Assembly: GCA_963813715.1 (NCBI GenBank)
Contig: CAWFAK010000005.1
Location: 608,001-672,000 of the forward strand
Reading direction: 5' to 3'
DNA: 64,000 bases
Origin: an uncultured Planctomycetaceae bacterium
GTDB taxonomy: Bacteria; Planctomycetota; Planctomycetia; Planctomycetales; Planctomycetaceae
In this document: piece after piece, positions 31,605-52,790 of the stretch
Layout: each line of letters begins with the position of its first letter
Position numbering within the stretch: the first letter of the stretch is position 1
The notes under the pieces: model-generated
What the model was told of the DNA's origin: nothing
Databases searched by the model: none
What the model saw: only the letters and a program-made list of their open reading frames with translations
Translations under genes and position numbers: made by a program

Positions 31605-31786
31605 GGGTGCCATGCCCACCGGCTTCGGTGGGCATTCGCGATTCGTAGCGGAAGACATGTCCACGCCGAGCCGTGAGACCGTCCGCGAATTTCGGGTGCC
31701 ACGGCTGAGACGCTTCGGCTCAGCCGTGCTCTTTACGGCTGCTCACGGCGGCTGCTGAACTGTTAAGAGCACGGTTGAGCAAGCTC
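31605..31786. repeat. Cluster of GGGTG-footed REP-like hairpins
   Basis: 31605-31635, 31694-31733, and an inverted copy 31764-31786 that continues at 32980-32992 beyond the IS. Confidence 0.75.
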
Positions 31787-32969
31787 GAGGGGATCCGGGA
31801 ATTAGGCGCTCTAAGAGAAAGGGTCTCCGTGGGTTAATGTTTTTTTGTCACAAAGAACATTGGCCCCACGGGAGACCCAAGGATGGGACATTCTACCCGC
31901 GCCTCAGCAAGCCTGCATGCGTTGGTGAAGTTGATGATTCCTGTGTGCCAGCGTGCTGAGAGAGAGCACCCGCGTCGCGGTCCGGGACGACCACCGGAGA
32001 TTGCTGATTGGGTCATGCTCGTGCTCGTAACCGTCGCGATTCTCAAATACCGTCGGAACAAATCCGCCCAATACCGATTTCTCAGTCAAAACCGAGCCAA
32101 GCTTTTGGAATGGATCGGGACCACCCGGTTCCCGTCACGCAGCACGTACTGTGAGCGTTATCGAAGGGCCCATCGCCTGTTTCAGGTTGCCGTTCGTCTT
32201 CAAGGCAGGTGTCTGTTGAAGCATCAAGTCGGCGACGCACGTTGTGTGGCTGTCGACAAAAGCCTGATTCGGTCGTTGGGTCCGAAGTGGCCAAAACGGC
32301 TGCGCATCCAAGGAAAGCTTTTGCGGGGTGTGGACCGTGAGAGCACGTGGGGCTATTGCAAGCACCATGGTTGGGTCCAGGGCTACTCCTACGAAGTCCT
32401 ACTTTCTGCGGGGAAAAAGGGACTTGTTGTGCCCCTCTTGGCGTCGGTGAATCAGGCTCACTGGAGTGAGCACCGGTCATTCCCCGAAAAGATTCCACAC
32501 TTGCCTCGACCCACCAAGTACGTCTTGGCGGATAGCGGCTACGACGGCAATGACCACGCTGACGCCATCGAGCGAGATTCGCGTGGCAACCCGACAGGCC
32601 GGCGGTTTTTATGCCCTCAAATCTACCGAGGAGGACATCGTCGCCAGCCGGGACCATTTCACGACGCACATCGTGCTCGAAGAGAAGTCCGCACTCGCCG
32701 GGAGGCGCGATATCAGTACTTCCAGACGAAGACAGCCCGGCTTCACTATTCGCGGCGAGGCAGAACCGCCGAGCCGTTCCACGAATGGTTCAAATCCACA
32801 TTCCAACTTCACGAGCGAGCCTGGCACCGTGGCTTGGACAACAACCGCACCCAAGTTCTCGGCGCCCTGTTCGCCTACCAGCTACTCGTTCGCTACAACC
32901 GCCGAAAACACAAACACAACGGCTCAGTTCGCTGGATCCTCGACGGCCTCTGAATTCCCGGATCCCCTC
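31787..32969 (+). mobile_element. Insertion sequence with a DDE transposase (IS4/IS5-like)
   Basis: Perfect 17-bp TIRs GAGGGGATCCGGGAATT; flanking direct repeat GAGCAAGCTC. Confidence 0.9.
31883..32953 (+). CDS. DDE transposase
   Basis: GRP motif; VAVD, LADSGYD and AEPF catalytic motifs; lies within TIRs. Confidence 0.85.
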   Translation: MGHSTRASASLHALVKLMIPVCQRAEREHPRRGPGRPPEIADWVMLVLVTVAILKYRRNKSAQYRFLSQNRAKLLEWIGTTRFPSRSTYCERYRRAHRLFQVAVRLQGRCLLKHQVGDARCVAVDKSLIRSLGPKWPKRLRIQGKLLRGVDRESTWGYCKHHGWVQGYSYEVLLSAGKKGLVVPLLASVNQAHWSEHRSFPEKIPHLPRPTKYVLADSGYDGNDHADAIERDSRGNPTGRRFLCPQIYRGGHRRQPGPFHDAHRARREVRTRREARYQYFQTKTARLHYSRRGRTAEPFHEWFKSTFQLHERAWHRGLDNNRTQVLGALFAYQLLVRYNRRKHKHNGSVRWILDGL

Positions 32970-33617
32970 GAGCAAGCTCAACCGTGGCACCCCAGGCAAA
33001 TCTTCGCTCGGAAGGCACCCCTTACTGGCGTGGGCGTCTTTCGACGGCCTCGCCCGCCGCGTAGAAAACTGATCTTGGACGAATCGCATTTTTGTGGCTG
33101 AATGGAAGAAGCGACTCTGTGCGCCGACGGCTGAGCTTGTGCGCGGAGTGCTCAGCTGCGTGACCGTGCGGCGACGTTGCCGAAGCGTCATCGATTCGGG
33201 ACGGGCTACCGGTCAGTTTTCGATCCAGGCGAGTTGAAGTCCGGTCCGGACACATTCTCAGAGGGACAGGATTGGGGGACGGGACTGGGACGGGACCGGA
33301 TCGGAATGGGAGGGGCGGGACGCGGGACGGGACACGTTGTTTCATCGAGAGAATCCCGGCGAATTTGCCCTCGACCGGCTCGGTCCGGACACGCGAGCGG
33401 GGGACGGGACCAGTCAAAAAAGGTCCGGTCCGGACACATTCCGTCACAGCCAAACGGACCAGACCGGGAACATTTTCACCACAAAGGCACCAAGGCACAA
33501 AGAAATCCGACTTGCTGGGTAATGTTTGCTTTGTGTGTGACCTCCGGCGGGACGAATTGAAGTTGGGACGGGACACAAACACCGGGACGGGACTGATTTC
33601 CGGTAGGGCAGGCTCTG

Positions 33618-34969
33618 TGTTGAGACCGGACACATGGGTGACAAGTGTTCGGACACATGGGTAACAGGTTTGGCGGGGAAGGCAAAGGCTGCGTGAGCGT
33701 AGCGAATGCAGCCTTTGCCTTCCTCGCGTCGGAAAATCACGTCCCCTCCGCGTTCCGGTCTCGCAGATCAATGCGGGCAATCTTCTGCGAGCAATAAAAC
33801 ACCTGCCAGACTCCCTCGGTCGTCGTCGGCCGAAGAGCGACGGCTTCGCCCGAGAACGCCTCGCTGATCTTGATCACTTGTCCTCGAAAACTCAGTTGCC
33901 CCACGGGATTCACCTTGCGGACTTCGTCTCCCTCGTCGTATTCGATCGGCGGAAGATGCTCCGGAAACTCACGTCGGCTGACCACGTAACGACTACCAGG
34001 CACTCTCAGCCCCAAGGCCTCGTGAGGACGCTCGTGGTTATACGTCTGACGCCAACGATCGAACTCCCGCTGCACCTCCCCAGAGTTCGCGAAGGCCCGG
34101 CCGCGCAACACTTCCGCCTGCAGCGTGCGGTGAAATCGCTCTTCCTTCCCTTGCGTCTCGGGGTGGTAAGGGCGGCCATGGATCACGCGAATGTTGTGTC
34201 GCAACAACCAGACCGACAGCTTCGTGTAACCTCCGCGACGGTGGGTGACCGCCCAGGGCGTCCCGTTGTCCATCAACATCGACCAGGGAAGGCCGTAACG
34301 TCGAAAGACGCCCTGCAGACTCTCCCGAACGGTCTCGGATCGCTGGTTCAAACAGGCCCGCAGCCCCAAGGAGTAGCGAGAGTGATCGTCTGTGATCGTC
34401 AACGGGTGGCAGCGACGACCGTCGACCATGCGGAAATCGCCCTTGAAATCCATCTGCCACAACTCGTTGGGCGCCTCCCGCTCAAACCGCTGCACGGGGG
34501 CACGCCGGAGTGACTCCTCCTGCTCGATGCGGCCATGACGACGCAAAATCGCCGTGATCGTGCTGGCGGCCGGGACCGCTTGACGCCCCAGGGCCAACAG
34601 ACGGGCCCGCAGCTTGCGACCTCCCCAGACCGGGTGCCGATCCCGCAGCTCCAGCACCTCCGCTTCAATGGCCGCGCTCGTCGGCTCGCGAAAATGCCGA
34701 GGACGACGCGAACGATCCACGCACGGTTCGCCCAATCGAACCCGGCCTAACCACTTGTAGCCGGTCTTCCGCGAAATCCCAAACCGCCTGCACAGCACAG
34801 CGACCTTCGAATTTGGCGACGACGCCAAACGGCAAAACTCTTCCCGCATCGACACAACGTCACACTCCTGCCACGGCATCCGTCTCCCTCCTGGAAAGGA
34901 AGACCTCAGCCTACAAAAAGTGTTACCTATGTGTCCGAACGACTGTTACCTATGTGTCCGGTCTATACA
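33618..34969 (-). mobile_element. IS481 family element
   Basis: TGT...ACA ends with repeated GGACACAT(G/A)GGT(A/G)ACA motifs; 5-bp TSD CTCTG. Confidence 0.92.
33737..34879 (-). CDS. IS481 transposase
   Basis: MPW start, ISRKTGYKW, WQMDFKG, MDNG, GKEERFHRT, YNHERPHEAL. Confidence 0.95.
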   Translation of the reverse strand: MPWQECDVVSMREEFCRLASSPNSKVAVLCRRFGISRKTGYKWLGRVRLGEPCVDRSRRPRHFREPTSAAIEAEVLELRDRHPVWGGRKLRARLLALGRQAVPAASTITAILRRHGRIEQEESLRRAPVQRFEREAPNELWQMDFKGDFRMVDGRRCHPLTITDDHSRYSLGLRACLNQRSETVRESLQGVFRRYGLPWSMLMDNGTPWAVTHRRGGYTKLSVWLLRHNIRVIHGRPYHPETQGKEERFHRTLQAEVLRGRAFANSGEVQREFDRWRQTYNHERPHEALGLRVPGSRYVVSRREFPEHLPPIEYDEGDEVRKVNPVGQLSFRGQVIKISEAFSGEAVALRPTTTEGVWQVFYCSQKIARIDLRDRNAEGT

Positions 34970-35388
34970 CTCTGCCTGCCGCCGACATGGGGAGCGGGAC
35001 GGGACACATTGTTTCACCGGGAAACAAGCGGCATTTGTGCGGAGCGAAACGGGACGGGATCGAATTGAGACAGGCGCGACGGCGAGCGCAGCCTGCCCCA
35101 CAAAATTCAGACGCAGACTTCACCTTTCCAATTTAGCGGGACGGGACACGTTGTTTCACCGAGCCGATCCCGGCGAATTTGCTCCTTCGCTCAGCCCGCC
35201 AAGCTCGATCGAGCGCGGCGGGACCGCGAGCCCGCGGGGACCGCAATTGGATCGCCCGCCGCCCGCGAGCCGGTCTGCTGGTGGTGGGGATCCGTTTTCA
35301 CATAAGGGAGAAAAGGATCCCCAGCAGCGCGATGCGGCAACTGTCCCGCGGTGACAAGAAATTCATCCCCGGCGGGGTGGGGACGCTT

Positions 35389-35680
35389 TTATTTGATAGG
35401 GGACTCCGAAGTTGGCGCCACCGACTGGCTTTGCCTAGAAAACCGCGTTAGCGCGCCTGGATCAGCGTCCGTTCCAGAAAATATATCGCTCAACCCACGG
35501 AGAGACGGGCTTCCCATTGATTGTGTGCCAGGGCATTGGCAGACAGCCAACGCGCAGCATGTCGGCAGTCGCTGAGGCAGCGATCCGCTGGGCACTTAAC
35601 AGCGCGGACGCGACGATGAACAAAATCGCGACCCAGTTGCGAGAGGATCTTCGGTAGGAGTGGAGTAGATCGTCACTCAT
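35389..35680 (-). CDS. Small leaderless hypothetical membrane or secreted protein (cassette cargo; stop at 35462, or 35389 if frameshifted)
   Basis: TACAAT-N6-ATG start; hydrophobic segment WVAILFIVASALL. Confidence 0.5.
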
Positions 35681-35743
35681 GCCGCGATTGTACCGGCAGC
35701 GAGTCACCGGAGTGACCAGATTCTGCACAGCACCGACTCGGAC

Positions 35744-35851
35744 GGGTGGCGGGGGCGCTCCGCTTCGCGGAAGCCCCTGTCTTGTCGTGATCCTTGCCCG
35801 CTGAGGTAGGCCGATGTTCCGGGGCTTCCGCTCCGCGGAGCGCCCCGGCCA
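35744..35851. repeat. GGGTG-footed REP inverted doublet; second copy split by IS110
   Basis: 35744-35779 is close to the reverse complement of 35819-35851 plus 37252-37254. Confidence 0.8.
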
Positions 35852-35859
35852 TCTATGAG

Positions 35860-36126
35860 AAGGGTAGCGTCAAGGGTTGGTTTTTGCGTTTGAAGTGGTG
35901 ATCTGGGCGATGCGGTACGCTCAACCATCTATTCGGGATCACCAACGGTCTGGAACAGGTCCGTCGATGTCGCCAGGAAGCCGACTTTCGAGAGACGCCC
36001 CATTCACCCTTCGAAGGTCGCTCTTTTGAGGGAACGCCTTCATGGCCGGGGGCGGGGTCGTCTGTGGGTCGTCGCAGCGCTTTCGATCGATGTTTTGTTT
36101 TGTGCTCTCCTGCCAAGGTCAGGGAT
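35860..36126 (-). ncRNA. Candidate bridge/seek RNA region of the IS1111-like element
   Basis: Position in the long non-coding end; inferred from family behaviour only. Confidence 0.45.
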
Positions 36127-37146
36127 TTAAGTCGGTTGCTGGCTGAGCGAGTAGGGTTGGCCCGTCTTCAAGATCGCTGTCATCAGGCACAACAACCGGC
36201 GGGCCACGGCGACGATCGCCTTCTTGGCACGCACGCGCAACTTCAATCGTTCATAAATCCGACGCCAACGTAACGAGTGCTGAACCAGCCGCCAGGCGGC
36301 TTCGACCAGCGTCGAGCGCAGCAGCGTCGAACCGTTCTTCTCCAGGTGCAGCTCCCGACTCTTGCCCGCACTCTCGCGTTGACCCGGTGAGAGCCCTGCG
36401 TAAGCGACGACCCGCTTTTGCGAACCGAAGCGATCAATGTCTGCCAACTCGGCCAGCACAACTTCGGTGGTCACGAAGCCCACTCCGGGGATCGTCCGCA
36501 ACAGCGTCCGCGCTTCCTGCTCGCAAAGCGGCGCCGCCTCGGCGAACTCCTTCAGCCGGGCGTTGACGGCCAGCAGCTGACGCCTCCCGAAGTGCAACTC
36601 TTCGACCATTTGATCCACGGCGAACCGATCCGCTCCCAAGAGAGGCACTTGGGCGAGATACGCCAACCCGTCCACGGTGAACAGACTGGGACGATCCGCG
36701 TTGTAGTCGCAGAGAATGCGGCGCAGACGGTTCTTGACGGAGGTCAATCGCCGTTGAACGCCGCCCCGCTGACGCACCAGTCGTCGATGCTCATGCTGCC
36801 GCGGAGTCGCCCGGTAAGACGTCGGAATCATGTCCAAGGCCAGGAACTCCGCGAGGATTTGCGCGTCGAGCCGATCGCTTTTACGCGTGCTCTCGGCAAT
36901 CACACGCAGCTTCTTGGGGTGGGCCAACAACACGCGATGGGCCACGGGCTCGATCAATCGCACGAACCATTCGTAGCTGGCGGTCGCTTCCACGACAGCC
37001 TCGAACTCCCCGAGCCTCTCGAAAAATGCGAGGATGCTCCGCTCTTCGCCACAACGCACGGTCCGACGCTCCAAGACCCGCCGCAATTGGTCGACGACGC
37101 AAATCGTGATAGTCTGCTTGTGTAGGTCGCAGCCGGCAAATTTCAT
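36127..37146 (-). CDS. IS110 recombinase/transposase
   Basis: GCDLHK, VEAT, KSDRLDA, TIPGVG, AYAGLSP..RESAG. Confidence 0.95.
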   Translation of the reverse strand: MKFAGCDLHKQTITICVVDQLRRVLERRTVRCGEERSILAFFERLGEFEAVVEATASYEWFVRLIEPVAHRVLLAHPKKLRVIAESTRKSDRLDAQILAEFLALDMIPTSYRATPRQHEHRRLVRQRGGVQRRLTSVKNRLRRILCDYNADRPSLFTVDGLAYLAQVPLLGADRFAVDQMVEELHFGRRQLLAVNARLKEFAEAAPLCEQEARTLLRTIPGVGFVTTEVVLAELADIDRFGSQKRVVAYAGLSPGQRESAGKSRELHLEKNGSTLLRSTLVEAAWRLVQHSLRWRRIYERLKLRVRAKKAIVAVARRLLCLMTAILKTGQPYSLSQQPT

Positions 37147-37400
37147 GGCGGTGTCCTTTTGTGGAAACGGTTTGCAACAAACTCCGTTTACCACGTTCAA
37201 GCACAACCACCAACCGGCTCGGCCTACCTCTTACCGCTCCTCATAGCTTCACCCCTGACGCGCCGCCGGATCCAAAAGCCGCAGCGTGTCAGGGGCATGC
37301 CCCTGGGTTTTGAGGGGTGACGCCGATACACTGCGCGAAGATTGCACGGGTCCTGGGATGATTGGCGCGAACAGCCTTTTTGCCTACGGAGAATGTCGAG

Positions 37401-48968: not shown

Positions 48969-49308
48969 CGGCTCTCCTCGCTACCTCAAAACTGCTGCCT
49001 GATTCTGCACAGTTTACCCGCCTTTGTGCTTACCCGCCGTTGTGCCCACCTCGACACGCCGGGAGCGCGGCCAGGCTCACGCGACTGGATCGTCCATCGC
49101 AATTTGGCACCTCCCAGCGCATCGCTTGGATGGGCCTGTCCTGCAATGCATGGCCACGCAAAGCCATGGGCCATGGCACTCCACCGGCCACTTAGGCAGT
49201 AGGCGACGGGGTGACTGGGGTCCATGTGTTAGCCGCGCGCCCAGGTCCACACCGCCGGTCTCCTTGTTCAAATGAAAGTGTCCGGACCGGGTAGTGGGGG
49301 CGTTTGAA

Positions 49309-49701
49309 TTACGGTTTTTCGCGATTGGCACGGGAATTTGTGGAGCGAGGGCGCATCGCCTTGTCGACGTTCCAGCCAGAGAGATGGTCTCGGAACTGGC
49401 CTGCATGCTGGTCCCAGATAAGGTCGAAGTGAAGGCGGAGCGCTTCGCCTCGCGCGTCGTCAATCCAGAATTCGACGCGGTTAGTCAGTGTTGAGCCTCC
49501 GGTTTGAGGCCATCCAATCTTCATCGCATCGCAGGACTCGCTAAAAGACATTCCCGTCTTCAGCCGTTGCTCGGCAATGCGGAGAGGGCTTTCGGCAAGT
49601 GGATTGCCACCGATGCTCGCGATGAAGAGCGCCGCGAGGACCATGATACCGAGACATTGGGGAACGGCCTTGATCCAGGCCGTCGGTACTTCGTCGCTCA
49701 T
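49309..49701 (-). CDS. Hypothetical membrane-anchored protein, 130 aa (cassette cargo B)
   Basis: ATG at 49701; N-terminal TM segment; TAA next to the cassette end. Confidence 0.6.
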   Translation of the reverse strand: MSDEVPTAWIKAVPQCLGIMVLAALFIASIGGNPLAESPLRIAEQRLKTGMSFSESCDAMKIGWPQTGGSTLTNRVEFWIDDARGEALRLHFDLIWDQHAGQFRDHLSGWNVDKAMRPRSTNSRANREKP

Positions 49702-49705
49702 GCCG

Positions 49706-49849
49706 TCATTCCGCGCGACCTTCGTAGTCGAGGATCCCCCGAACCCGATAAGACCCATATTGGGCGTATGATGCGAGCAAAGCGAACGCGAAGGCGAGCA
49801 CTGTGAGCACGACAACCGCAATGAATACGTATCGCTTGCTTCGGCTCAT
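49706..49849 (-). CDS. 47-aa single-TM peptide (cassette cargo A)
   Basis: TAGAAT-N6-ATG leaderless start; MSRSKRYVFIAVVVLTVLAFAFALLAS... Confidence 0.5.
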   Translation of the reverse strand: MSRSKRYVFIAVVVLTVLAFAFALLASYAQYGSYRVRGILDYEGRAE

Positions 49850-49879
49850 GCCGTCATTCTAGCGGCGGCCACCCCCCGG

Positions 49880-50504
49880 ATTCAGACTTCGCCCTAAAAG
49901 CTATCCGCTGCGCCTCTTAGCACCGGTCTAAATCCGAATTGTGAAGATCAGACCGGACCTGACTCGATTGGCAGTGACGCTATCTAAGCCAATCACGCCT
50001 GAGCCAATCAGGGGGGTGGCTGCGTCGAGGGGTCAGGCTCGCCCCCAGGTCACAACCGCCGGTCTCCTTGTTCAAATGAAAGTGTCCGGACCGGATTCAG
50101 ACTTCGTCCTAAACTGCAGCCATTGCACCTCTTAACCCCGGTCTGAATCGGAATTGTGAAGATTAGACCGGACCGGACCTGACTCGACTGGCTGCGACGA
50201 TATCCGGGCCAAGCGGGAGAGTAGCTTGGTCGAGCCGTCAGGCTCGCCCCGCGGTCCCGGACCGCCGGTCCCTGTCTGTAAATGAAAGAGTCCGGACCGG
50301 ATTCAGACTTCGCCCTAAACCGCAGCTGCTGCGACGCTTAACTCCGGTCTAAATCCGAATTGTGAAGAGGAGACCGGACTGGACCTGACTCCGATGTTGT
50401 GCTCGCAGTCGAGCCCAGCTCGGGTGGCTGGGGTCGAGCCGTCAGGCTCGCCCCCAGGTCCGCAACCGCCGGACTCGTTGTTCAAACGAAAGTGTCCGGA
50501 CCGG
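49880..50504. repeat. Tandem array of three 204-215-bp units, plus a partial unit at 49241-49290
   Basis: Units begin ATTCAGACTTCG at 49880, 50095 and 50301 and end AAAG(T/A)GTCCGGACCGG; 49251-49290 is identical to 50055-50094. Confidence 0.92.
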
Positions 50505-50705
50505 ACCTGACGTCATCCGGCTACCGACCACGCCGTCGATGCCCATCAATGTTGCGGCCATTTCATCCCCGGCGCAAGCCGATCTCGGCCGTCACGACGG
50601 GGCCAAACTCCATTCTGCCACAAATTGCCAACCAACCAAGATCGGTTTTCTACGCCGCTCAGTTTCTCGGTCGCTCGGCCGGAATGCAGACGGGAGATTT
50701 ACCGG

Positions 50706-50743
50706 GGGTGCCAGGGTTGAGCTTGCTCGAGCGTGCTCTTAAC
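50706..50743. repeat. GGGTG-footed REP hairpin; uninterrupted relative of the IS target at 31764/32992
   Basis: GGGTGCCAGGGTTGAGCTTGCTCGAGCGTGCTCTTAAC. Confidence 0.75.
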
Positions 50744-50796
50744 GGGTTCAGCAACCGTCGTCATCAGGCGGAAGGAGCAAAGGGGCAGACGCACGG

Positions 50797-52790
50797 TCAA
50801 TCGCCGTTCGGGCCGTCGATCACCAGCGTGCAATCTGGCAGGCTCTCGAGGAACTGTCGGCCGTACGGTTTGCTGCGAATCCGCGGATCGAGAATCGCGA
50901 CCTGCCCGGTGTCCGCCTTGCGGCGAATCAGGCGTCCGAAGCCCTGCTTGAGTTTGATCACGGCCTCGGGCACCTGGTATTCGATGAAGGGATTGCCCCC
51001 TCGCTCACGAATCGCCTCCAGCCGCGCCTCGAGCAGCGGATGATCGGGCACGCTGAACGGGAGCTTGGTGATGATCACGTTCTGCAGCGCGTCGCCGGGC
51101 ACGTCGACTCCCTGCCAGAAGCTGTCGGTGCCGAACAACACGCCGGCGGCGTCCTTGCGGAAGCGTTCCAACATCAGCGAATTCGGCAGCCCGTCGGACT
51201 GGCAGTAAAGCGTGTATTGATGCCGGGCGAACCATTGAGCGAGTCGCTCGGCACAGCTCTTGAGCATTTTGTAACTGGTAAACAGCACAAACGCGCGGCC
51301 GTGCGTTTCCGTCACATGGTGTTGGATGCGTTCGCAGACCGCCTGCTCATACTCACGGGGATGGGCGGCCGGGTCGGGCATGCCGTCGGAGAGGATCAAT
51401 CGCGCCTGACGCTTGAAGTCGAACGGGCTGCCGAGCCGGCACTCGTCGGCGGCGCCAGCCCCCAGGCGGTCCTTAATGAAGTCGAAGCTGCGCTTGCCGA
51501 CGGCGAGCGTGGCGCTGGTGAGGATCACCGTCTTCACCCGGTCGAAGAGTTCGCTCTTGAGCACCGGGCCAACTTCGATCGGTGCACAGTGCAGCTCGGT
51601 GCGCGGCCGTTTTCCCTGTCGGACCTCGATCCAGTAGACGCAACCGGGCAACGACTGCTTGAGCCAGGCCGCCAGCGATTGGCCCAGCTCGATACAGCGC
51701 TGGGCGGCGGCCGTCAGCTCGATCGACTGTTCTTCGTTCACGATCTCCTTCGCGGCAGAGTTCATCGTCGCTGCCAGCTCGGTGAGCGCGGGGGTGACTT
51801 TGTTCACGACGTCGAGCGGTTGTCGGAGGCGGCCATTTTCGCTTCCGTGAACCTCGTGCCAGTCGCGGAGATCCTCGAGCAAGTCCCGCACACCGTGGCG
51901 GATGCGGTCGACCAGCCGCTGCGCGTCGAGAGTTTGTGGTGCACCAGCAGGCCGCGCTGCGTGTAGTCGTTGTAGAGCTTGTTGAGCAGGTAATCGAACT
52001 GTCCGCTGGTGAGCGTCAGTCCCATCCGGTCGCCGGCGACCGCTTCGACGGTGTGAGCTTCGTCGAGCACGACGACTTCATAATCGGGCAGCAAGCTCAC
52101 CCCTTCCCGCCGCAACGCCAGGTCAGAGAAGAAGAGGGCGTGATTGACCACCAGGACGTCGGCGTCCCAAATCCGCCGCCGCGCCTGGTAATAGAAGCAG
52201 TCGTTGTACGTGGGGCATTTTTTCCCCAGGCAATTGCCACGATCGCTAGCGACTTCGTCCCAGACGTTGGGGAACGGCCGCAGCGACAAATCGCTGCGCG
52301 TGCCGTCGGTCGTCCGCCGCGACCAGTCGAGGATCGTCTGCAGCTGCTCGAATTCCTGCTCCTGAAAGAAAATCGATTTGGCCCGTTCGACGGCGGCGTT
52401 CATCCGCCGCAGACTGATGTAGTTCCCGCGCCCTTTCGCCAGCACGCACGAGAACTCAACCGGCAGCACTGAACGCAGAAAGGGGATGTCCCGCGTGACG
52501 AGCTGTTCCTGCAGGCTGATCGTGTGGGTCGAAATGACGAGGGGCTTGCGGGGGCGTTCCGTGGTGCCCGTCGGATCGTGTTCCGCGGTGACTGCCAGAA
52601 TGGCCGGGACGAGGTAGGCGAAACTCTTGCCCACGCCAGTTCCCGCTTCGACCAGCAAATGCCTCGACTCCGCGATGGCCCGCTCGACCGCTTCGGCCAT
52701 TTCCAGCTGCTGTGGCCGGTGTTCGTAACTGTCGAGGCGCCGGGCGATTCGGCCGTCACTGCCGAGCACGGAGGTGGCATTGAGCGTCAA
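50797..52790 (-). CDS. dinG: DinG/YoaA family ATP-dependent helicase (frameshift near 51900)
   Basis: EAGTGVGKS, DEAH, TSATL, FWQGVD, QGFGRLIR. Confidence 0.92.

Follow-up and report, generated by a model that had tools for sequence, protein, structure and literature searches.

The window analysed here is the whole 64,000-nucleotide stretch of DNA from an uncultured Planctomycetaceae bacterium, and the locus under study lies within it between a DinG-like helicase gene (Helicase_C_2 match; minus strand, 3' end at 50797) and pdxJ (48968-48252, minus strand), the latter downstream of a module that we refer to as P. The 135 bases flagged initially (50609-50743) consist of a decayed REP hairpin, module A, and one copy of module P, with a short linker between them, both on the minus strand. 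Read along that strand, the features between the two genes were as follows.

50695-50766, minus strand: module A, the decayed REP hairpin (profile search)
50597-50656, minus strand: core of module P (profile search, with analysis of conservation and spacing)
50506-50596, minus strand: leader between P and the first unit, part of it conserved, with indels (alignments among array loci)
49884-50505, minus strand: tandem array of three X-V-Y units of ~205 nt (repeat families and profile matches)
50505-50434, 50302-50230 and 50096-50025, minus strand: X copies of the array
50433-50391, 50229-50185 and 50024-49968, minus strand: V copies of the array
50390-50305, 50184-50099 and 49967-49884, minus strand: Y copies of the array
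49709-49861, minus strand: small-ORF cassette K1, with a 5' block CCGCCGCTAGAATGACGGCATG and then a 47-aa hydrophobic ORF (49849-49709)
49312-49711, minus strand: small-ORF cassette K2, with a 5' block GGAATGACGGCATGAGCGACGAA and then a 130-aa ORF (49701-49312)
49083-49302, minus strand: block end, made up of a terminal X, a cassette tail, a REP-like hairpin and a 24-nt piece (profile search and sequence comparison)

At the block end, the terminal copy of X (49292-49223, minus strand) was fused directly to the cassette tail and was followed by the REP-like hairpin GTGCCATGGCC..GGCCATGC. The 24-nt piece, GGTGCCAAATTGCGATGGACGATC (49111-49088), was considered as a common right end and rejected, since it has two real copies, shared with one other field only, and is therefore not a family terminus. 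At the opposite end, the flagged stretch itself is best explained, from its matches elsewhere in the genome, as the junction of two dispersed repeat modules, namely the worn REP hairpin and the promoter-type module P.

The field at 49.9-50.5k proved to be a regular tandem array of X-V-Y units. X starts with a small hairpin (GTCCG-GTC-CGGAC) and a T-rich run, which were flagged as terminator-like, and continues with a 12-bp REP-like hairpin. V spans 22-57 nt, is mostly a hairpin with changing stem letters and is poorly alignable. Y is 86 nt long and comprises a hairpin, GGTCCGGTCTAA..TTAGACCGG, and two invariant single-stranded stretches. The conserved cores of the unit, the GGTCCGGTCTAATCTTCACAATTCGGATTTAGACCGG hairpin and GAAGTCTGAATCCGGTCCGGACAC, occur once per unit. 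At nine loci P has X and Y behind it in the same orientation, these loci holding between 1.5 and 3 X-V-Y units, and at five more it has one or two partial matches; at all nine array loci every X and Y match lies downstream of P on the strand of P. Five loci show the succession P, X/Y units, K and terminal X, and a terminal X behind the cassettes was counted at four. The 20 full copies of Y at the nine loci were 80-97% identical, and the fold of Y shows one conserved hairpin in a sequence too invariant for a covariation test. Among the V segments, 15 of 16 matched only themselves at E values up to 0.001. They have a common degenerate consensus and are therefore taken to be fast-evolving homologues and not captured spacers. 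Searches of phage and plasmid collections returned no match for the V segments or for the 931-nt head plus array. Arrays have so far been found in two species of the genus only, and several of the fields contain insertion sequences. A survey of the 5 kb around 10 loci for a shared partner gene yielded no common protein family except an IS110 transposase, which recurs as plain insertions.

Iterated nhmmer searches raised the number of P matches in this genome from 12 to 41 and then to 67, and most of these copies stand alone. Aligning further genomic copies, which the initial annotation had proposed as a check, thus uncovered a family with a common core: in 65 anchored copies the conserved stretch covers ~60 bases, roughly aGAAAACTGATCTTGGaCGAATcGc..TTTTGTGGCTGAATGGAGAGAGcgg, and the information drops to nothing on both sides. 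The conserved region has sharp limits, ~47 bases upstream and ~12 bases downstream of the presumed start, and the flanks are unrelated between P subfamilies. In the copy studied here the core is made up of an A-rich block with GATC, a -35-like TTGGTT (50639-50634), TG (50620-50619) and a -10-like CAGAAT (50617-50612), after which GGAGTTTGG is conserved around the predicted start. The blocks are spaced 33 nt apart in 49 of the 62 copies measured and 32 nt apart in the other 13. In one subfamily of the majority type, the region ~10-35 nt ahead of P is conserved too and contains a TTC-N3/4-GAA half-palindrome (for example TTCCGCGGAA), which may be a regulator site. At four loci of other clade genomes (L102, L098, L105 and L114), long runs of GTCCAAG/GTCCAAA heptamers begin less than 20 nt from the presumed transcript start of P.

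The distribution of P was then assessed with patterns of different stringency. A strict 42-base two-block pattern occurred seven times in this genome, three times in one congener and not at all in the other 199 of the 201 genomes of the family that were searched, and the same pattern read backwards gave no match; the resemblance between the two loci first noticed in the window is far beyond chance. The exact two-block pattern was found 30 times in this genome and 16 times in the sister species, G193. Copies were present in six of the 11 other genomes of the genus (G193 and five with 1-5 each), the remaining five having none, and neither the pattern nor its reversed control matched in 49 genomes of other genera or families. 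A scan of one genome per species placed P in 35 positions, every one in a metagenome-assembled genome from soil; the genomes carry the label Planctomycetaceae, apart from one that is labelled Tepidisphaeraceae. Judged by these searches, P is a module family of its own, specific to one genus of uncultured soil planctomycetes. Its high copy number in two species only fits selfish amplification as well as function.

The initial annotation drew on a second locus in the window, in which the following features were recognised.

31680-31786, plus strand: REP doublet (REPIN) of module A, left part (sequence and profile search)
31787-32969, plus strand: insertion sequence in the loop of the REP hairpin (inverted ends, target duplication, transposase ORF)
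33058-33117, plus strand: partner module P, of the majority type with CTGAAT (profile score 54)

The similarities claimed between the two loci were reproduced exactly. The first block, GCGTAGAAAACCGATCTTGG, matches at 19 of 20 positions (50655-50636, minus strand, against 33059-33078, plus strand) and the second, TTTGTGGCAGAATGGA, at 15 of 16 (50624-50609, minus strand, against 33091-33106, plus strand). The REP hairpin is common to both loci as two inverted repeat pairs, both 92%. The element that splits the partner hairpin measures 1183 bp, with perfect 17-bp terminal inverted repeats, a 10-bp target duplication, GAGCAAGCTC, in the hairpin loop and a 356-aa ORF (31883-32953) with a DDE_Tnp_1 match (E 6e-10). 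The report of co-oriented GGTCCGGTCCGGACAC-type motifs behind both leaders likewise held, with five matches (at most two mismatches) against 0.17 expected, the plus-strand ones past 33.1k and the minus-strand ones past 50.6k. P points into a repeat field at both places, and X-head motifs occur in each, but the fields differ in make-up. The partner P faces a field from 33.2k to ~35.5k with X-head motifs, GGGAC repeats and two more insertion sequences, and no X or Y profile match was obtained after 33.1k. The two insertion sequences (33607-34980 and 36130-37206) are an IS481-like element with an rve match, a 380-aa minus-strand ORF and 65-nt inverted ends, and an IS110-family element, copies of which lie elsewhere at the same CCCTCACCCCGRCCC-type repeat module.

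Module A could be assigned to a known class. In its intact form it reads CACGGTTGAGC-AA-GCTCAACCGTG, with GTTGCTGAAC..GTTAAGAG ahead of the hairpin. An iterated profile search of this genome (G000) gave 45 matches counting both strands of the palindrome, with paired plus and minus matches at ~20 sites, inverted doublets among them. Intact doublets lie on both sides of a Y1_Tnp gene at C3:72.2-73.1k (72459-72668; 29.5 bits against a cut-off of 23). With many copies of a short G+C-rich palindrome and a flanked Y1 (HUH) transposase gene, as known from REPIN/RAYT pairs, module A is a REP/REPIN of a family with its own RAYT-type transposase. The possibility raised at the outset, that the stretch might be a remnant of a known mobile element, is therefore correct for its hairpin part, and at the partner locus the hairpin acts as an IS target, as known for REPs. 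Module A is plentiful in a congener that has no X-V-Y arrays and is missing at three array-heading copies of P; we therefore regard it as an independent neighbour and no part of a leader. X also holds a REP-like 12-bp hairpin, common in congeners. In contrast to a REP, module P is not palindromic, and unlike the arrangement of REPINs with their RAYT, none of the eight Y1 genes of the genome has X or Y at its flanks, the nearest link being X-head motifs in a field beside one of them. BIMEs of enterobacteria have repeats that are alternately inverted, whereas the X-V-Y units are all co-oriented. The eight Y1_Tnp matches include one at C7:398.3-398.9k and six further places, and at least four of the eight are flanked by repeated hairpins of their own, which points to several separate REPIN/RAYT-like systems in one genome. 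REPs are reported for Planctomycetes generally (PMC3733652).

The sister species G193 allowed the history of the locus to be assessed. There, 123 nt separate the helicase gene from pdxJ, compared with ~1.7 kb (49083-50766) here; the missing part begins at module A and homology resumes at ~49082. A contig from one soil RNA library joins 48977 to 50783 with ~99 other letters between, and thus has the same short form. No target duplication was recognised at the 1.7-kb block and no inverted ends were seen. The block is best explained as an accessory mosaic, which would have been acquired or lost in one piece after this species and its sister diverged. Two other arrays are syntenic in G193. The third codon positions of flanking genes are 83-87.5% identical between the two genomes. 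For the array at C5:556.8k the identities were 92-93% for the P core, 91-94% for Y, 77-93% for X, 60-85% for V and 56% for module A. The array at C7:792k has kept its P and Y cores with 74% identity overall against 91-92% in the flanks, and its first, leader-proximal X is present here and missing in G193. Uniform decay of homology, which had been named as a sign against a functional leader, is not what we found; the decay clearly differs between parts. The high identity of P and Y among paralogues could reflect selection or concerted evolution, gene conversion being possible.

The small-ORF cassettes form a further component of such fields. The genome holds ~61 of these K cassettes, mostly in co-oriented clusters, which include the two of the window (49312-49861, minus strand) and those at C15:99.8-109.0k, C5:1499.3-1504.0k, C5:441.8-446.9k and C9:13.7-18.5k. 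They share a 5' block, ..CCGCCGCTAGAATGACGGCATGAGCGACGAA, a leaderless-type start and an N-terminus MSDE.., and in K1 and K2 a TAGAAT or GGAAT block lies 6 nt before the ATG of the 47-aa and 130-aa ORFs. Their 3' ends form a conserved imperfect palindrome of ~55-60 nt, represented by ..TTCCCGTGCCAATCGC.. at the 3' end of K2; the outer arms of the tails may resemble integron core sites. The encoded proteins are diverse (40-146 aa) and mostly single-helix membrane proteins, the 130-aa product of K2 having one predicted hydrophobic helix. None of 25 exceeded a Pfam cut-off and none had a PADLOC match, K1 and K2 likewise being without a match. Cassette content is species-specific, and the largest cluster is almost without counterpart in G193. 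At three loci the transition from cassette tail to X head falls on the identical base. P is not always at the upstream edge of the cassette clusters.

We then asked how far P resembles a promoter. Its conservation is confined to a stretch the size of a polymerase footprint, with fixed spacing and with unrelated flanks on either side, as expected of a sigma-70-type promoter. Read by eye, the hexamers are TTGGTT (3/6) and CAGAAT (4/6, its second base being A and its sixth T), separated by a 16-nt spacer and with TG-n ahead of the second, so that P agrees with the two sigma-70 hexamers at only ~7-8 of 12 positions. The tRNA genes of this genome have TTGAC(A/C), 17 nt and TA-n-AAT upstream, and P has the same geometry with, in addition, a TG one base before the hexamer. 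Every -10 that we read upstream of tRNA genes and cassettes in this genome has A as its second base. In P the second base of the -10-like hexamer is T and not A in 46 of 64 parsed copies; it is A in the flagged copy and T in the partner at 33.1k, and all nine copies that head X/Y arrays are of the CAGAAT type. Sigma-54 and ECF-type readings of P were dropped, as the spacing or the conserved positions did not fit when compared by eye with the consensus spacings. The same assembly carries 87 tRNA genes, ~40 of them head to tail on one strand within 5 kb at C7:914.7-919.4k (ARAGORN).

The orientation of P and the sequence behind it gave further evidence. In 50 of 65 copies the longer ORF-free side is the one towards which P points (binomial p 1.6e-5), with a median ORF-free gap of 881 nt downstream against 432 nt upstream, and the first confident ORF downstream is on the opposite strand in 43 of the 65 and on the same strand in 22. 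Within 230 nt of P, 15 copies passed a terminator pattern; ~10 of these (four in this genome, six in other clade genomes) have a compact form in which P is followed, after ~95-100 nt, by a strong GGATCCCC..GGGGATCC hairpin and a T run. When metagenome contigs were scanned with a 21-nt piece of the predicted RNA body alone, 28 places were obtained, of which five are unrelated coding DNA; all of the other 23 have P upstream at the same distance, and nine have a terminator 86-92 nt after the seed. None of the 28 contigs starts at the predicted start of P, all the matches being inside longer contigs. Contigs over the locus from four runs showed an even, low depth across genes and repeats alike, and contig breaks at P were attributed to repeats because they were also seen in a DNA run. 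The fold of the leader (50506-50596) had no covariation support, with one of nine predicted pairs compensatory and a consensus energy of -0.96 kcal/mol. Rfam searches of window positions 28000-56000 returned only one tRNA and rows at chance level, and no family exceeded its gathering score at twenty P loci of other genomes. An Acido-Lenti-1 match (35.4 bits against a gathering score of 37) lies at L117:1182-1236 on the plus strand, 550 nt downstream of a copy of P on the same strand. The initial description of the stretch as a promoter-like leader is supported by comparison as regards the ~60-nt limits of conservation, the fixed spacing, the position of P upstream on the same strand at nine of nine array loci and the terminator in a subfamily, but a sigma-70 consensus scan of 49000-51000 and 32900-36200 recovered no promoter-like site.

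Taken with about even confidence, our preferred reading is that P is the promoter-bearing head module of a genus-specific mosaic repeat system, from which a structured noncoding transcript is fired into the array, and that the block as a whole is accessory. A weak -35 (TTGG..) together with an extended -10 (TG-n-CAGAAT) would allow P to recruit RNA polymerase, and a noncoding transcript would start near 50605 on the minus strand. It would cross the short leader into the tandem, hairpin-rich X-V-Y units, here as at eight other loci. Since the head of X combines a small G+C hairpin with a T-rich run, many transcripts probably stop ~100-150 nt downstream, and read-through would extend across the array and both small ORF cassettes of leaderless type that follow it.

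The comparison drawn in the initial annotation, with a CRISPR leader or an integron Pc, did not withstand this analysis. CRISPR arrays and integrons share with the present fields an oriented promoter-like head followed by co-oriented repeated units, and integrons resemble them further in that small-ORF cassettes with a palindromic 3' end occur in the same fields. However, a CRISPR array with a leader was rejected on its repeats, as the units are ~205 nt long, V (22-57 nt) has a degenerate consensus in place of spacers and no phage or plasmid match was found, and also on its genes, as the survey of protein families within 5 kb of 10 loci found nothing in common but the IS110 transposase and hence no shared cas-like gene. 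An integron was rejected for want of an integrase: the best TIGR02249 score in this genome, which is 82.6% complete, was 78 bits against a cut-off of 265, none of 12 genomes of the genus had a match over the cut-off, and the cassettes, unlike those of integrons, have start signals of their own. With their defining parts missing the two analogies fail, though the logic of an oriented head with co-oriented units holds.

Other dispersed repeats were compared as well. The Correia elements of Neisseria are short dispersed repeats that carry promoter hexamers to new places, and P is likewise a short dispersed repeat bearing promoter-like hexamers; Correia elements differ in having inverted repeats as their ends, together with target duplications, whereas P lacks both of these features and stands at the head of long fields. 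In its architecture the P-led system seems to work most like the BOX-type composite repeats (boxA-boxB(n)-boxC), its closest counterpart. Both consist of a head, a variable tandem internal module and a tail, represented here by P with its leader, the X-V-Y units and the terminal X; both are predicted to be rich in hairpins if transcribed, are clustered with other repeats with insertions into one another and show a bias to convergent genes, P facing a convergent gene in 43 of 65 copies. According to one account of BOX in S. pneumoniae (PMC3049150), the head and tail modules can stimulate the expression of neighbours, and the elements are over-represented between convergent genes. The differences are that the present units are larger (~205 nt) and belong to a different phylum, that no terminal inverted repeats were seen, that small-ORF cassettes are included and that the head is a full promoter-shaped module which stands alone in most of its 67 copies; the two are taken as unrelated in sequence and are compared by architecture. 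No description of a module or array like the P-led one in Planctomycetes was found in open-access papers and preprints.

We also considered that P might act on the level of DNA, as a site recognised by a recombinase, a transposase or a nucleoid protein, at the head of fields to which X/Y units, small-ORF cassettes and other repeats are added with one polarity, and thus like a CRISPR leader or attI in its logic. Such a role would agree with the placing of X, Y and K cassettes all on the strand of P at array loci, with the homologous heads and tails but different middles of this locus and that at C8:490-493.8k, and with the constant joint between cassette tail and X head at three loci. The leader-proximal X of C7:792k that G193 lacks, and the majority of P copies without the A expected in a sigma-70 -10 hexamer, are in keeping with it as well. 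However, no candidate enzyme gene was common within 5 kb of the 10 loci, where the IS110 transposase recurs as plain insertions, no integron integrase was found in the 12 genomes of the genus, and X or Y flanks none of the eight Y1 transposase genes. Furthermore, cassette clusters do not always have P at their upstream edge, and units of P plus terminator resemble ordinary small RNA genes. We therefore regard a recognition site as unlikely.

A role in trans was judged to be just as unlikely. Here the P-led arrays would be host genes for structured RNAs, a selected paralogous family serving for example as sponges or scaffolds that offer an RNA-binding protein many copies of the conserved Y hairpin and of the Y/X junction. 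The strong identity of Y across its nine loci, its 91-94% identity between orthologous arrays, which is above that of third codon positions, the synteny of two arrays in the sister species and the presence of the conserved cores once in every unit would all suit a selected RNA. Against this, the flagged array is absent from the sister species, arrays are known so far from two species of the genus only, and one of the syntenic arrays has fallen to 74% overall between flanks of 91-92%; in addition the Rfam searches gave no matching family, no candidate for a partner protein emerged, and insertion sequences have entered several fields.

More doubtful still is a combination in which the P-headed fields are a new kind of polar accretion locus, operating in the manner of an integron or CRISPR array but without the enzymes of either, with P as both promoter and entry point. 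Behind P, co-oriented modules, namely structured X-V-Y RNA units and small leaderless-type ORF cassettes with their conserved 5' block and palindromic 3' block, would enter or replace one another where junctions are conserved, as at the joint between tail and X head. Finally, it is very improbable that P simply serves an mRNA in which a long 5' untranslated region precedes the two small ORFs (49849-49709 and 49701-49312) and pdxJ (48968-48252), which all lie downstream of it on the minus strand, since pdxJ of G193 manages without the block, the small ORFs have their own TAGAAT-type block 6 nt before the ATG, and for 43 of 65 copies the nearest confident ORF downstream lies on the other strand, the downstream genes being unrelated to each other.

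Even if P should prove inert, the fields described here would represent a new mosaic repeat family, and would caution against a CRISPR-like label for arrays of this kind. If instead P works as a promoter, as in our preferred reading, the clade would carry dozens of near-identical, movable starts into gene-free DNA, two thirds of them directed towards convergent genes. Soil planctomycetes, abundant but uncultured, would then have extensive noncoding and antisense transcription that is missing from their annotation, and for genetic work in a phylum with few known promoters P would offer a strong candidate ready for use. Should the fields grow by polar accretion, small membrane proteins and noncoding RNAs would form a separate set in each species. 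The fields show composite repeats, REP families, insertion sequences and small-ORF cassettes piling up in co-oriented zones, and they mark species-specific hot spots of genome change.
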